Both the position numbers and the translations under genes were made by a program. From the NCBI GenBank assembly GCA_005191425.1, contig SUPR01000107.1:1-10383 (forward strand): a stretch of DNA of 10,383 bases, in the 5' to 3' direction. This document shows positions 1,949-7,548 of this stretch, one piece after another (position 1 is the first letter of the stretch; each line of letters starts with the position of its first letter). The notes beneath the pieces are model-generated. The model did not search any database. It had not been told where the DNA came from and saw only the letters and a list, made by a program, of their open reading frames with translations. The stretch comes from Candidatus Helarchaeota ASGARD archaeon Hel_GB_B. GTDB taxonomy: Archaea; Asgardarchaeota; Lokiarchaeia; Helarchaeales; HEL-GB-B.

Positions 1949-2338
1949 ATGGTAGAAAATGCTTTAAATTGGCTAAGACAAGCAGAAAAAGATTTACTAC
2001 ATGCAGAAAAGAGTATAATCAATAAAGATTATGAATGGGCTTGTTTTGCATCTCAACAAGCAGTAGAAAAAGCTATTAAAGCTCTATATAAGACTATTAA
2101 TATTGATGCTTGGGGGTATTCTGTTTCCCAATTATTACAAAACTTACCAAATGACTTAATTCCTAATAATAATCTAATAGATATGGCTAAAGAACTCGAT
2201 AAACATTATATACCCGCAAGATATCCAAATGCTCATCCATCAGGAGCCCCAATGGATTATTATACAAAAAAAGAAGCTGAAAGAGCTGTTGAATATGCAA
2301 GGACGATCATCAAATATTGTAAAAATAAAATTGTTTAA
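1949..2338 (+). CDS. HEPN domain protein (COG2250/PF05168-type), putative toxin component
   Basis: WLRQAEKDL..A, YEWACFASQQAVEKAIKAL and LDKHYIPARYPNAHPSGAP..YYT..EAE.A match the HEPN consensus. An Rx4H pattern (RYPNAH) is present, and the gene overlaps the downstream MNT. Confidence 0.92.
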   Translation: MVENALNWLRQAEKDLLHAEKSIINKDYEWACFASQQAVEKAIKALYKTINIDAWGYSVSQLLQNLPNDLIPNNNLIDMAKELDKHYIPARYPNAHPSGAPMDYYTKKEAERAVEYARTIIKYCKNKIV

Positions 2339-2756
2339 ATTAGATTATGATAAAATAATTCGCGAATTAAGAAACGAGATAGATATCTGGAGAAAAAAAT
2401 GTAATTTAAAATTAGTTATTTTATTCGGCTCTCTTGCGAAAGGGTCATATTCATGTGGTAGTGATGCAGATTTATTAATAATAGCTGATAATATACCACC
2501 TACTTACTCTTCCAGAATTGATTTATTTTTTTCACCAAAAATATCCGCAGGACTACATCTTATTATTTATACTCAAGATGAATTGTTTAATGAAATACAA
2601 GAAATAAATACTTTTGTTTTTGAAATTTTTTATAAGTTTAAGTTGCTCTATGGCAATAAGAATTTATTAAATAAAATATTAAAAGAAATAAAACATAAGA
2701 TTAGCGAGAAAAAAGCAATAAGACATAACTACGGCTGGGAAATACTAAATAAATAA
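2295..2756 (+). CDS. Minimal nucleotidyltransferase (MNT, Pol-beta superfamily), putative antitoxin
   Basis: VILFGSLAKGSYSCGSDADLLII (GS...DxD). I prefer the ATG at 2295 (MQGRSSNIVKIKLF...) to the ORF-track start at 2229. This gives a 44-nt overlap with HEPN and an N-terminus typical of this MNT type. Confidence 0.88.
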   Translation: MQGRSSNIVKIKLFKLDYDKIIRELRNEIDIWRKKCNLKLVILFGSLAKGSYSCGSDADLLIIADNIPPTYSSRIDLFFSPKISAGLHLIIYTQDELFNEIQEINTFVFEIFYKFKLLYGNKNLLNKILKEIKHKISEKKAIRHNYGWEILNK

Positions 2757-3003: not shown

Positions 3004-3675
3004 ATGATGGATAAAATGACTCGTATAAAAAATAAATATTTTATAGATTTTAAATTACCAAAAACGGAAATAACCATCAATATCAATGCAATAAAGAAAA
3101 TTATGCTACATACTATTGAATTTTCTAACCCAACAAAATCAAATTGGCGATGGAAGGAAGTTATGGGTATTTTAGGGGGTAAAATTAAGGATGAAAATAA
3201 TATTTATGTAAATGATAGTTTTGCAATAACACATGGTAATCATTATTCTGTTCAATATAACAAAAAAAATTATATAATAGCAACTCAAATCAACGATCTT
3301 CTTTTTAAAAAAAATGAGTTTTTCGTAGGTTGGTATCATTCTCATCCTGGACTTGGATTTTTCTATTCGCATACCGATATAATTAACCATTTAGGGTACC
3401 AAGATGTTAATCCCCACGCTATTGGTATTGTTTTTGACCATAAAGGATATGATCGTGAACGTAAATTTTTCGAAATTTACAAATTACGATATTCTAATTA
3501 CGGTTATATAAGTTATGAATCAGTCCCTTATATAATAGAATCAGTCAGTAAAAAGGATGAAATTAAAACCTTAAAAAAAATCTATGATGAGATTTTATTC
3601 TATTGGAAAATTGGTCTAGTTGAATCTGCAGAAAAAACAATCAAAAAATGGTTAAAAGAATTTAAAAAAATGTAG
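3004..3675 (+). CDS. JAMM/MPN+ (Mov34) zinc isopeptidase, Rpn11/CSN5-like
   Basis: EVMGILGG (catalytic Glu, codon 3157-3159) and VGWYHSHPGLGFFYSHTD (H-S-H-x7-S-x2-D intact, 3337-3378), followed by YQDVNPHAIGIVFDH. Alternative in-frame ATGs lie at 3007 and 3016. Confidence 0.92.
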   Translation: MMDKMTRIKNKYFIDFKLPKTEITININAIKKIMLHTIEFSNPTKSNWRWKEVMGILGGKIKDENNIYVNDSFAITHGNHYSVQYNKKNYIIATQINDLLFKKNEFFVGWYHSHPGLGFFYSHTDIINHLGYQDVNPHAIGIVFDHKGYDRERKFFEIYKLRYSNYGYISYESVPYIIESVSKKDEIKTLKKIYDEILFYWKIGLVESAEKTIKKWLKEFKKM

Positions 3676-4290: not shown

Positions 4291-5052
4291 TCAAGTACCA
4301 TATTTTTCCAAAAAACTATTTATTTCAGAAGGTGTTATTGCACCATTATGTAAAGCCGTGGCAATCAATACTCCATCGACTTGTATTTTTATTAAATTTT
4401 GAATATCCTTAATAGAATTTATACCGCCACCTGTTATTATTTTTGAATTTGTCTCATTAATGATTTCATAAATTATTTCACTAACTCCTCCTAGTTTTGA
4501 ACCCACTCTAAATAAATCTAAGATAATAAACTCGTTAATATCAAATTGTTCAAAGTATTTTATAATTTCAAGAGCGTTTAAACCTTTTATTTCTTTGCAT
4601 TTACTTATATTATTATTTTTATATAAATCTACGCTTATTATTAAATTTGTTTGATCATTTTTCAATACTGATTGTAATTCTTTAATAAAATTAACAGAAG
4701 TTAAAGTTTCAGTCCCAATGATTAAGTTTTTAATATTGTGTACTAAGATTTTTCTGGCTCTTTTTATATTAGAAATACCTGCATCAATCATAATATCTAT
4801 ATCATAAATTTTCAAAATTTCATTAAGATAATTAAAATTTTCAATGTTTTTAGTTATTGCATCAAGGTCGGCGATATATAATTCTTTAAATCCGAACAAA
4901 TTAACAAATTTATCAATAATATCTATTATGTTTGCAGAATTACTAATGACAGACTTAATTGGATAATATTTATCTCTTTCTCCTTGGATACCGTGGACTA
5001 CTTTTGAATTAAGAATATCTATAACTGGAATTATTCTCATTTTCTGATACAT
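4291..5052 (-). CDS. HisA/HisF-related TIM-barrel protein (hisAF-related, MJ0703/Orf17-like), probably not true HisA
   Basis: RIIPVIDI...VVHGIQGERDKYYPIKS, ELYIADLDAI, MIDAG, IIGTETL, ISVDL, IILDLFRVGS, ITGGGI and GVLIATALHNG. The start may instead be the ATG at 5040, which has GGATG upstream. Confidence 0.85.
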   Translation of the reverse strand: MYQKMRIIPVIDILNSKVVHGIQGERDKYYPIKSVISNSANIIDIIDKFVNLFGFKELYIADLDAITKNIENFNYLNEILKIYDIDIMIDAGISNIKRARKILVHNIKNLIIGTETLTSVNFIKELQSVLKNDQTNLIISVDLYKNNNISKCKEIKGLNALEIIKYFEQFDINEFIILDLFRVGSKLGGVSEIIYEIINETNSKIITGGGINSIKDIQNLIKIQVDGVLIATALHNGAITPSEINSFLEKYGT

Positions 5053-5074
5053 CCAAATTAACTAAATTTTTAAT

Positions 5075-6049
5075 TCAATTAATATCTACAATACCATCAT
5101 TCGTTAATCTAAAAACTGCTTCTCCTTCAGGTAAGACTGGGCTATCAATAAGTCTGGCTAATCTTTGATCTCCTCTAATTACGCGTAGATAAACTCTTGT
5201 TTGACAGATATGGGCTATTATATTACCACCAACAGCCTTAATCGGGTCGCCCATTATTACTGAAGGGTCGTCAATAACTTGATTGGTTATAATAACTGCA
5301 CAATTGTTAATATCTGCGATTCTTTCTAGTTGATGCAAATGTTTATTCAGGTTTTGTTGACGCGACTTTATAGATTCATTTCCGATATATTCAGCTCTAA
5401 AATGAGTTGAAATAGAATCAATAATTAAAAGTCGAATATTACTATTGTTTATTATTTCTTCTGCATCATTAACCAATTCTATTTGGTGTTCACTATTATA
5501 TGCTCTTGCCACTTTAATATTTTTTAAAGCTTGTCCTGGGTCTAAATGCATTGCAATAGCCATAGAAACAATTCTTTCGGGTCTAAATGTCCCTTCACTG
5601 TCAATATAAAGTGCATTTCCTTCAAGTCCACCGACATCTTTTGATAATTGTACATTAACTGCTAATTGGTGTGCTAGTTGTGTTTTCCCGGATTTAAAAG
5701 CTCCATAGAACTCTGTTATCGACCCTGTCTCGACCCCTCCTCCTAATAAATTATCTAATTGTATTGATCCAGTTGTAATTTTATCGATTTTAATTCTTCT
5801 ATCATATAGTATATCTGCTGATATAAACCCCATATTACAAATTTTACGGGCTTTTGAGATTATTTTACCCGAAAAAGTCTTATTCAAACCCAATTTCTCT
5901 ACAAGTTCCTTCACAGTTAATGTAGCTATCTGCTCAAATCTTTTATAGCCGGCAGACCATAACTGTTTTGCAGTTGAAATACCTATATTTAATTTACTGG
6001 CGAATTTTTTCAACTCTTCTTTGTCATTTTCACCATTATTCTCAGTCAT
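5075..6049 (-). CDS. radA: RadA/Rad51-family recombinase, full length, probably a divergent paralog
   Basis: N-terminal HhH-like domain, MGFISA (FxxA polymerisation motif), TTGSIQLDNLLGGG.ETGSITEFYG, Walker A GAFKSGKT (5681-5704), YIDSEGTFRPER, Walker B LLIIDS, RQQNLNKHL, TNQV, GGNIIAH and DSPVLPEGEAVF. Confidence 0.95.
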   Translation of the reverse strand: MTENNGENDKEELKKFASKLNIGISTAKQLWSAGYKRFEQIATLTVKELVEKLGLNKTFSGKIISKARKICNMGFISADILYDRRIKIDKITTGSIQLDNLLGGGVETGSITEFYGAFKSGKTQLAHQLAVNVQLSKDVGGLEGNALYIDSEGTFRPERIVSMAIAMHLDPGQALKNIKVARAYNSEHQIELVNDAEEIINNSNIRLLIIDSISTHFRAEYIGNESIKSRQQNLNKHLHQLERIADINNCAVIITNQVIDDPSVIMGDPIKAVGGNIIAHICQTRVYLRVIRGDQRLARLIDSPVLPEGEAVFRLTNDGIVDIN

Positions 6050-7548
6050 TAAATTTCCTCCCGATTTTTTATAATCAAATTTAACTCATTTGATGTAAAT
6101 TCATGAATTTGATCATTCATATCCCGACACGATAAGATTATTTCTTTAATTATTGCTTTTCCAGGCCTTAAAGCTTTAAATTTATAACTCATTTTTATAT
6201 TTTCACTCGGAACAAATTTGAAAACTTGGAATGGTCCTTGTTCAACTATTTCGATTAAATTTTTTGGCTTATAAGATATCTTTTTTATTTCTAAATTATT
6301 AAATGTATTCTTACTTTTATTTGTAATCCGAACTTCTATTTCAAAAATAGTTTGTTCGATAATTTCTTTTCTGGGAGAAATTAATTTTACTTCTATTAAA
6401 CTATTTCTAATAAATTTAATTACCAAATTGATCAAATTTTTAAATTTTTTATCCGTAATTTTTAAGTTATGAGCAATAATTTCAATTTCTGCCCAATCAA
6501 AATCATAAATTGCCCTAAATAATGCCCCTAATTCCTTATTTTTTACCTTATCAATTAATACTAAAATTGAATCAAAATCTTGGGCTAAAATATAATAACA
6601 AATTGTATATTCCAAATAAATTTCTTTTTTATATTCATCTGTCATATCTAAATTAGAGTACATCACCTTATAAATTTTAGAAAAAAGTTTGTTCAAATTT
6701 TGAGTTCCAAGGTTTTCCATCAATAATTTAAGAAATTCCTTGCTTTCCTCCTCATTAAACAGGACAATATTATATCTATCAAAATTTAATATCAATTTTA
6801 TTATTTTCAAAATCTTTTCTTTGTTAAATAAATTTAAATCATAAGGAATATCCTCAACTGAATACCAAATTTCTTTTAATTCATCTTTTTCTCCTTCTTT
6901 TAAAAAATGAAATGTCGCTAAAAGACAGACCTGTAATTTTATTTTTTCAGACAGGAAATTAGGGACAAATAGCATAAATACTTCTCGATATAATATAATT
7001 TTTAGTTTATTATTTAAATATTCATCACTTAAAATAATCTCATCGCTTTTTACTTCAATAATACCAAATCTTAAGTTGTTTAATGATTGACCATTAAGAA
7101 AAGAAATATACGGTAAATTTTTAATTTTAATATCTAAAAATTTGGAAACTTGATGATATATTTTATGGAAATCTTGGTTAATTTGATTTCTTATATCATC
7201 AAATGTTATAACTTTTGGTTTTGGTCTAACAATCTTATATATAATATCTGTATACTTCTTAATCTTTTTTTCAATCGGCCCAAACTCCTTTTTAGAATAA
7301 TTTTGACCTCCAACTATCCTGGCATCCTCACTAATCTGATAAATCCTATATTCTGTTTCGTAATTTAATACCATTAAATATGGAATTCTTTTCTCCCTCT
7401 TAAGGACCCTAACTTTAGGCCCAAAACCGCGCCTTAATATCTGCATATTTTTTGCTCGTCTAATTTCTAATCTGTCTGGGCGCTTATTTTTAAATTCTTT
7501 AATTGCTATCTCTTTTAAAATTTTAGGTATATCTCTACTTTTAATCAT
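6049..7548 (-). CDS. Hypothetical multidomain protein (499 aa): basic N-terminal domain, helical middle region, C-terminal Ig-like beta-sandwich
   Basis: 1.5-kb open frame with GTGA upstream of the ATG and a stop that overlaps the radA start. The last ~110 aa show alternating beta-strand patterns (FEIEVRITNKS..., MSYKFKALRPGKAIIKEIILSCRD...SNELNLII). No signal peptide or TM segment is apparent. Confidence 0.85.
   Translation of the reverse strand: MIKSRDIPKILKEIAIKEFKNKRPDRLEIRRAKNMQILRRGFGPKVRVLKREKRIPYLMVLNYETEYRIYQISEDARIVGGQNYSKKEFGPIEKKIKKYTDIIYKIVRPKPKVITFDDIRNQINQDFHKIYHQVSKFLDIKIKNLPYISFLNGQSLNNLRFGIIEVKSDEIILSDEYLNNKLKIILYREVFMLFVPNFLSEKIKLQVCLLATFHFLKEGEKDELKEIWYSVEDIPYDLNLFNKEKILKIIKLILNFDRYNIVLFNEEESKEFLKLLMENLGTQNLNKLFSKIYKVMYSNLDMTDEYKKEIYLEYTICYYILAQDFDSILVLIDKVKNKELGALFRAIYDFDWAEIEIIAHNLKITDKKFKNLINLVIKFIRNSLIEVKLISPRKEIIEQTIFEIEVRITNKSKNTFNNLEIKKISYKPKNLIEIVEQGPFQVFKFVPSENIKMSYKFKALRPGKAIIKEIILSCRDMNDQIHEFTSNELNLIIKNREEI
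6057..6061 (-). promoter_or_regulatory. Shine-Dalgarno GGAGG for the radA paralog
   Basis: The minus strand reads GGGAGGAAATTTAATG. GGAGG lies 7 nt before the ATG, and the ATG overlaps the TAA of the upstream gene. Confidence 0.75.

Follow-up and report, generated by a model that had tools for sequence, protein, structure and literature searches.

The window, a stretch of 10,383 nucleotides from Candidatus Helarchaeota ASGARD archaeon Hel_GB_B (assembly GCA_005191425.1, contig SUPR01000107.1), encodes a RadA protein, here called P0001, that departs from nearly all RadA members in two features of its DNA-binding loops, although by score and fold it belongs to the family. The genome has two more RadA genes of the canonical kind, which excludes a role of P0001 as the sole recombinase, and P0001 is probably not the main recombinase either. 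In our view, the chances are even that it is a filament-capable ATPase that exchanges strands poorly and acts beside the main RadA proteins.

P0001 is a full-length RadA with conserved ATPase and polymerization motifs

On the minus strand, the gene runs from ATG to stop and codes for 324 amino acids. P0001 reached 414.1 bits with the RadA model NF003301 (cutoff, 259) and 395.7 bits with the RadA model TIGR02236 (cutoff, 361.15), and it scored 293 bits with Pfam Rad51 (cutoff, 22); the canonical RadA copies of the same genome scored higher on both RadA models (459 to 462 and 433 to 441 bits, respectively). Scores with the RAD51 model TIGR02239 (322 bits; cutoff, 478), the DMC1 model TIGR02238 (307 bits; cutoff, 448), and the RadB models TIGR02237 (138.7 bits; cutoff, 172.4) and NF006861 (108.6 bits; cutoff, 278) were all below the cutoffs. 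The top solved relatives found with phmmer were the RadA proteins of P. furiosus (E = 1e-88) and S. solfataricus (E = 1e-87), both aligned over the full length. Indeed, P0001 is much nearer to RadA/RAD51, with E values of 1e-79 to 1e-88, than to the paralogs RAD51C and Rad57, with 1e-21 to 1e-23, and unlike the core-only RadB it has an N-terminal domain and the FxxA motif.

The AlphaFold2 (AF2) model of P0001, with a predicted local distance difference test (pLDDT) value of 88.9, consists of an N-terminal helix-hairpin-helix (HhH) domain, an FxxA linker, and a RecA core, that is, the RadA/Rad51 fold. It matched protomers of human RAD51 filaments with template modeling (TM) scores of 0.85 to 0.92 and a root mean square deviation of 2.0 to 2.6 Å over approximately 310 columns. 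Disorder was confined to residues 265 to 275 in loop L2, and disorder is usual for this loop. By sequence and predicted fold, P0001 is a full-length RadA. The features of the gene are as follows.

5075-6049, minus strand: coding sequence of P0001, the remodelled RadA (open reading frame list; NF003301, TIGR02236, and Pfam Rad51 scores; AF2 model)
5171-5188, minus strand: LRVIRG, residues 288-293; R289 (R303 equivalent) kept, V290 in place of the K304 equivalent
5234-5284, minus strand: loop L2, residues 256-272; acidic, without aromatics, pattern NQV[ILM][DE]DPSV..GD in the six clade members
5354-5392, minus strand: loop L1, residues 220-232, EYIGNESIKSRQQ; Asn224 in place of the RAD51 R235 equivalent
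5681-5704, minus strand: Walker A GAFKSGKT, residues 116-123; K119 is the equivalent of R130 of site II
5816-5827, minus strand: FxxA polymerization motif F75-I-S-A78; F75 and A78 invariant in the clade
5840-5995, minus strand: N-terminal HhH-type domain, residues 19-70; weakened HhH signature, helices modelled with pLDDT of >90

The phmmer alignment of P0001 with human RAD51 needs no gap before L2; the offset is +11 there and +14 past L2. K119, N224, H280, R289, V290, R299, and D302 of P0001 are equivalent to R130, R235, H294, R303, K304, K313, and D316 of human RAD51. The alignment bears out the residue numbering given in a preliminary description of this DNA; the motifs quoted there are also all found in P0001 where they had been placed. 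For residue frequencies, we compared P0001 with 196 RadA/Rad51 sequences of 280 to 450 amino acids taken from two database searches. The FxxA motif lies in GFISA (residues 74 to 78), and its F and A are present in 155 and 161 of the homologs, respectively. Besides Walker A, P0001 contains DSEG (residues 150 to 153), HLHQL, GGNIIAH (residues 274 to 280), and DSP (residues 302 to 304), and the ATPase motif residues K122, T123, E152, D211, Q257, H280, and D302-S303-P304 are all present. K122, E152, and H280 agree with at least 98% of the homologs, and D302, S303, and P304 agree with 90 to 95%; T123, D211, and Q257 are invariant in the P0001 alignments examined. Judged by these residues, the Walker A Lys and Thr, the catalytic Glu, the Walker B Asp, the Gln sensor, His280, and the DSP cap are intact. 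The earlier claim that the ATPase and polymerization motifs are intact therefore holds; the gene is also under purifying selection, as described below.

The surfaces that contact DNA are altered

A word-indexed search found five further clusters (at 90% identity) of close relatives, P0002 to P0006, which share 72 to 79% identity with P0001 and form with it a clade of six clusters. The metagenome-assembled genomes from which they come are named Helarchaeota, Lokiarchaeota, or Promethearchaeota archaeon by NCBI. Beyond this clade, identity falls to 58% or less, and the matches are ordinary RadA proteins of Odin-, Verstraete-, Nezha-, and Bathyarchaeota.

In loop L1, codon 5378-5380 is AAT and encodes Asn224, which aligns with R235 of human RAD51, as had been proposed. 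Arg occupies this position in 182 of the 196 homologs (93%) and is absent from P0001. Across the six clade members, the position is N, R, T, S, M, and M, so that Arg is lost in five of six, and the codons are AAT, AGA, AGC, ATG, and ATG in the five members whose DNA was compared, all but P0003. Thus, the absence of Arg from P0001 is certain, but a uniform loss in the clade is not what we found. Within the clade, no other region of the core is conserved as little as L1 (0.64 versus 0.76 overall), and canonical RadA pairs of similar divergence have the opposite trend (0.81 versus 0.73). As far as these alignments tell, the L1 Arg site is released from constraint and not swapped for one new residue.

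Loop L2 (residues 256 to 269 read NQVIDDPSVIMGDP) differs in another way. Its conservation is about average both in the clade and in the canonical pairs, and the clade consensus is NQV[ILM][DE]DPSV[IV][MLI]GD[PS]. Position 266 is F, Y, or W in 92% of the homologs and M, L, or I in the clade. Three further positions carry residues that are rare among the homologs and present in all clade members: D or E at position 260 (4% of the homologs), Asp at position 261 (8%), and Ser at position 263 (4%). P0001 thus lacks both the aromatic residue before GDP and the basic or neutral start of L2. The loop had been described as acidic and devoid of aromatics, which is correct and fixed in the clade, but its acidity is not abnormal as such. 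The triplet gate of L2 has the acidic D273 in DMC1. In related genomes, further RadA copies are acidic in L2 as well, with MDSPG or QSDPG, and because of these cases, acidity alone is not proof of lost DNA binding. P274 and G275 in the D-P-G region of DMC1 L2 are tied to mismatch tolerance (PMC7809202).

In LRVIRG, the equivalent of K304 is Val, as stated in the preliminary description. Position 290 is K or R in 94% of the homologs, but each of the six clade members has Val there, and LRV is invariant among them. The assignment of this residue to the secondary DNA site needs correction, however: site II of human RAD51 consists of R130, R303, and K313 (PMC6764946), and the equivalents in P0001, K119, R289, and R299, are all basic, so that site II is kept and just the adjacent K304 equivalent is missing.

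The two HhH hairpins of P0001 contain KLNIG (residues 19 to 23) and GLNK (residues 54 to 57), and the clade has K-L-[NG]-[IT]-[GT] and [LIV]-[NS]-K at these places. P0001 scored 22.3 bits with Pfam HHH_5, and the six clade members scored 14 to 25 bits, all below the cutoff of 27 bits, compared to 45 bits for a canonical RadA of the same genome, 41 for eukaryotic RAD51, 47 for an ortholog from a sister family, and 59 for Odin RadA. The HhH signature is thus weakened, but the missing Gly residues are not distinctive by themselves: at position 56, in the second hairpin, Gly is present in just 51% of the homologs and Ser in 31%, and the hairpins of the eukaryotic RAD51 representative contain one Gly each. 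Against the background of the 196 sequences, the deviations of P0001 are beyond chance. The changes in L2, LRV, and HhH are fixed across the six clusters.

The gene evolves fast under purifying selection

Pairwise comparisons by the Nei-Gojobori method gave proportions of nonsynonymous differences (pN) of 0.06 to 0.20 and of synonymous differences (pS) of 0.64 to 0.78 within the clade, and ratios of nonsynonymous to synonymous substitution rates (dN/dS) of 0.03 to 0.12, which are rough since synonymous sites are almost saturated. All clade members have an intact reading frame. By these measures, the gene is under purifying selection, and pseudogenization was rejected. Moreover, the residues specific to the clade are encoded by differing synonymous codons among its members, a pattern that suggests retention by selection and not a recent shared origin.

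Between this genome (G000) and the sister genome G001 of the same genus, P0001 has 74% identity, compared to 87% and 89% for the two canonical copies. On this comparison, the gene has a rate of change about double that of the canonical copies, yet it is constrained. Indeed, RadA is the best-conserved protein of its gene block (73 to 79% identity), followed by a radical SAM protein (72 to 74%), a JAB protein (60 to 68%), a HisA/F-like protein (58 to 62%), a 162-amino-acid protein (56 to 64%), a kinase (53 to 55%), and a 499-amino-acid protein (36 to 50%).

Two canonical RadA genes are present in the same genome

The assembly (3.54 Mb, 182 contigs, 93.7% complete, 4.9% contamination) has seven matches to the Rad51 family: two canonical RadA proteins, P0001, one divergent full-length protein, and three short ones. 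Apart from P0001, these genes lie on contigs C147, C182, C106, C8, and C113 (loci L009, L010, L011, L005, L006, and L007). The canonical proteins, of up to 405 amino acids with a Lys/Ser-rich N-terminal extension on C147 and of 318 amino acids on C182, share EYIGRGTLSDRQQ, NQVQSSPGVFFGDP, and LRKSKANKR, and their L1, L2, and LRK are canonical. P0001 is therefore not the only full-length RadA of the genome. Had it been the only one, the reading proposed beforehand would have been overturned; instead, the search for a second canonical radA gene turned up two. The divergent full-length copy on C106 has 365 amino acids and is 33% identical to P0001. The three short proteins (231 to 247 amino acids) are RecA-like and core only, and the one on C8 has no Walker A motif and starts near the linker region. 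The same set is present in G001 with one further copy, and since it recurs there, contamination is unlikely.

The further copy of G001 (contig C133, locus L046) is a fifth full-length RadA with a 315-amino-acid frame, an end branch of 0.81, and SELSP in place of GVGP; a counterpart was not found in G000. The extension of the long canonical RadA (L009:604-1821, minus strand) comprises approximately 85 to 100 Lys/Ser-rich residues. Pairs of a long RadA (open frame of approximately 405 to 440 amino acids) and a short one (approximately 320 to 345 amino acids) recur in nearly all related Lokiarchaeia genomes. In the tree described below, the pair of each family clusters together, within this order, which suggests repeated duplication or gene conversion. 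Directly 3' of the short canonical RadA gene (L010:1492-2448), a gene for a Ras/Rab-like small GTPase is located (L010:2629-3141, minus strand); such GTPase genes are typical of Asgard archaea.

P0001 appears to be the classical RadA ortholog of the order

P0001 is closer to Odin and TACK RadA proteins (53 to 58% identity) than to the canonical copies of its own genome (46 to 48%). We call the classical archaeal RadA ortholog A-type and the order-specific canonical pair B-type; f1 is the family of the remodelled clade, and f2 (L016 and L018) and f3 (L022 and L054) are sister families. In a maximum-likelihood tree of 77 sequences (LG+C20+F+G4 with posterior mean site frequencies), the clade was recovered with support of 100/100, and its stem has a length of 1.17 changes per site. 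It nests in a group of 26 (100/98) together with Odin and TACK RadA proteins and with one RadA each from several genomes of f2 (L016 and L018) and f3 (L022). The two canonical copies of the genome are in a separate group (100/98) that contains only RadA proteins of this order; the Lokiarchaeia families f4 and f5 (99/98) and the eukaryotic RAD51/DMC1 clade (100/99), recognized via P0174 with 569 bits on TIGR02239, are separate as well. P0174 came from a search of representatives at 50% clustering, which served to sample diversity; intein-containing and canonical RadA proteins ranked highest in it, and the remodelled clade had no representative of its own. A RadA tree, as called for in the preliminary description, thus groups the clade with Odin and TACK RadA and apart from the canonical copies. 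A topology in which the clade joins the A-type copies of f2 and f3 costs 8.5 log-likelihood units and was not rejected by the approximately unbiased (AU) test (p = 0.16).

The tree alone leaves the origin unsettled, and it is synteny that decides. A gene of the HisA/HisF family adjoins the A-type RadA gene in f1, f2, and f3; it is located downstream and co-oriented in f1 and f2 and is divergently oriented in both f3 genomes. It was not found in the flanks of approximately 0.5 to 1.5 kb around the B-type loci checked. The gene was considered as a functional partner of RadA, but this was rejected: it is absent beside an Asgard RadA and a Verstraetearchaeota RadA, and it looks like an unrelated gene, perhaps a metabolic one, whose position is just synteny within the order. 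Because of the bootstrap support together with the HisA/F synteny, the P0001 gene appears to be the A-type RadA ortholog of the order and not a recent B-type duplicate.

The A-type orthologs of f2 are near-canonical (with Arg, FF, and KK), and those of f3 are long-branched and altered, with P or K for the L1 Arg, fewer aromatics in L2 (SY or IV), and LRR or LRE. The f3 proteins L022 (genome G005) and L054 (genome G003) thus display a parallel loosening of the L1 and L2 surfaces. From these sequences, it seems that the A-type copy has escaped its standard role across the order and that remodelling is most thorough, and most stable, in the f1 clade. Two clades of RadA in some Asgard archaea have already been published (Matsuo et al. 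2025, Genome Biol Evol, PMC12722695). The available part of that report covers only phylogeny and when the RAD51/DMC1 duplication took place and mentions neither a lineage with remodelled loops nor Helarchaeales; it is alike in finding more than one full-length RadA lineage per genome.

Gene neighborhood

The genes and signals next to the P0001 gene are as follows.

4291-5052, minus strand: HisA/HisF-family gene, 22 nucleotides past radA; Pfam His_biosynth, 2.4e-38; TIGR00734 hisAF_rel, 139 bits, below the cutoff
6049-7548, minus strand: 499-amino-acid orphan gene; in TAATG, its stop (TAA) and the start of radA (ATG) share one base
6057-6062, minus strand: GGGAGG, Shine-Dalgarno-like, 7 nucleotides before the radA start and inside the end of the 499-amino-acid gene; putative function

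The 499-amino-acid protein matched no Pfam or NCBIfam model, and among 5.8 billion proteins it belongs to four clusters in all, that is, three others. Its homologs are encoded beside members of the RadA clade wherever the context was seen (P0272 and the L074/L015 homolog), and in f2, no copy of the gene was detected within 1.5 kb upstream of the near-canonical A-type RadA. The AF2 model (pLDDT 80) has a poorly ordered basic N terminus, a helical domain, and a C-terminal sandwich similar to CARDB and TRAP-beta. A fold search returned generic matches, and those to the Sec63 unit of Brr2 and to AlkC had TM scores of 0.22 or less. No FxxA or BRC-like motif was found in the protein, and a predicted complex of RadA with it (score 0.01, mark 0.32) speaks neither for nor against binding. 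No RNA runs were listed with window positions 4291-7548, a result that is silent on expression. The protein also has an invariant R-E pair (REVFM) at the place where the HExxH of a zincin would be expected.

On the opposite strand, window positions 3004-3675 (plus) encode a JAB/MPN domain protein (Pfam JAB, 2.1e-15) that is conserved in every contig with the RadA clade. Two overlapping open reading frames of 129 and 175 amino acids at 1949-2756 (plus) resemble a HEPN and nucleotidyltransferase pair (RYPNAH; GS...DADLL) and could form a toxin-antitoxin-like module.

Discussion

How might such a protein work? We propose that P0001 is the A-type copy in a genome whose routine recombination is most likely carried out by the two B-type RadA proteins. 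In this genus and its close relatives, the A-type RadA would have undergone a burst of change followed by purifying selection, in which the parts for ATP binding and hydrolysis and for polymerization, with FxxA, and the three basic residues of site II were kept, while the L1 Arg was lost or became unconstrained, L2 became acidic without aromatics, the K304 equivalent became Val, and the HhH motifs were weakened. A P0001 protomer may still form filaments in an ATP-dependent manner, or join RadA filaments via FxxA, and it probably binds single-stranded DNA, but on its own it would be poor at strand exchange. The precedent for such a defect is at the same L1 Arg: in S. pombe Rad51-R257A (the R235 equivalent), presynaptic filaments are nearly normal and strand exchange is nearly all lost (PMC7289862). 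P0001 is like this variant in that the L1 Arg is missing and the other filament machinery is kept. Unlike human RAD51-II3A, it has an intact site II; further positions are changed, and one clade member has the Arg.

P0001 would then serve as an auxiliary filament component, that is, a nucleator, stabilizer, or cap, for the B-type RadA proteins, in the manner of Rad51 paralogs. RAD51 paralog complexes cap RAD51 filaments, according to the titles of PDB entries 9svx and 9q29, and RadB and SsoRal1 are mediators in archaea (PMC5480776). By analogy with these proteins, we infer a mediator or capping role for P0001; the proposed mode is that of RAD51B/C/D, XRCC2/3, Rad55-Rad57, RadB, and SsoRal1, a helper or cap and not the main exchanger. 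With the canonical archaeal RadA proteins of S. solfataricus (PDB 2bke) and P. furiosus (PDB 1pzn), P0001 shares the architecture, Walker A and B, the catalytic Glu, NQV, His280, and DSP. It differs from them in Asn for the L1 Arg, in an acidic L2 with aliphatic residues for FF or FY, in LRV for LRK, in an HhH domain below the Pfam cutoff, in the two canonical copies alongside it, and in a rate about twice theirs. Compared to RAD51 and DMC1, its L2 has the archaeal length, without the three extra residues, and its place in the tree is away from the eukaryotic clade.

Several observations weigh against P0001 being an accessory derived from the A-type RadA. P0002, the nearest relative, has retained the L1 Arg, and the loss of this residue does not define the clade. 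With site II intact and L2 conserved, DNA is probably still a substrate, and P0001 may even have retained full recombinase activity. The four other divergent or short RecA-like paralogs of the genome could serve as the mediator instead. Also, placing the clade with the B-type group of the order costs 22.4 log-likelihood units and was not rejected by the AU test (p = 0.12).

The main alternative is that P0001 is a still-competent recombinase with changed properties, such as fidelity or substrate preference; the recombinases of the genome would then differ in function, loosely like the pair of RAD51 and DMC1. It passes the cutoffs of both RadA equivalog models, it has the basic site II and the ATPase and FxxA motifs, its L2 is conserved in the clade, with a DPS that resembles the DPG at the triplet gate of DMC1, and the Arg of P0002 fits this idea as well. 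The Arg that five of the six members lack is, however, present in 93% of the homologs, and S. pombe Rad51 without it is all but unable to exchange strands; furthermore, L1 appears to be free of constraint in the clade, neither the L2 aromatic nor the K304 equivalent remains, and the gene evolves at about double the rate of the canonical copies. We consider competence in strand exchange possible but rather doubtful. A redundant copy that drifts toward loss under relaxed selection would account for the long stem branch, the fast rate, and the variable L1 Arg. It would not be expected to have dN/dS values of 0.03 to 0.12, to be better conserved (73 to 79%) than its neighbors (36 to 74%), to have an intact frame in every member, or to keep the residues of the clade through synonymous codon turnover, and we regard drift as very improbable.

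The stop/start overlap TAATG and the upstream GGGAGG raise the question of whether P0001 and the translationally coupled 499-amino-acid protein are a two-protein module, an ATP-driven polymer or scaffold for fork protection or for a task off DNA. The 499-amino-acid gene was seen only in genomes or contigs with the remodelled clade, directly upstream where the context was seen, and it was not detected within 1.5 kb upstream of the near-canonical f2 RadA of A-type. But all carriers are close relatives, and the shared order may simply be inherited; the protein evolves fast (36 to 50% identity) and is devoid of an FxxA-type RadA-binding motif, and its fold gives no functional clue. Such a module is unlikely. 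We are equally skeptical of a bolder version, in which, in a close relative of the lineage ancestral to eukaryotes, a classical RadA has become a strand-exchange-dead filament accessory with the lineage-specific 499-amino-acid protein as its partner and represents either an independent, full-length stage on the way to RAD51 paralogs or a polymer outside recombination. Least probable of all is foreign DNA, whether the contig is a contaminant or the gene was recently acquired from a virus or from an archaeon of the TACK or Odin-like kind. The higher identity to Odin and TACK RadA than to the own canonical copies and the estimated contamination of 4.9% would be in line with it, but the GC content is approximately 25% throughout the window, the neighboring genes are typical of the lineage, and the HisA/F synteny reaches two sister families. 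The same gene in the same context is found in the sister genome and on a 467-kb Helarchaeota contig, and contamination was rejected on these grounds.

In eukaryotes, recombination cannot do without the help of RAD51 paralogs, and P0001 may speak to how a recombinase turns into such a helper. Multiple RadA copies in Asgard archaea have been published before; what is new here is a full-length RadA with changes in L1, L2, the K304 equivalent, and HhH. If P0001 is indeed an accessory to the B-type RadA proteins, it would be a natural separation-of-function recombinase and a tractable early stage of paralog specialization with simple biochemistry. Automatic labeling as "RadA" masks copies of probably distinct function in Asgard archaea, which bears on the RadA counts that are used to date RAD51 and DMC1.

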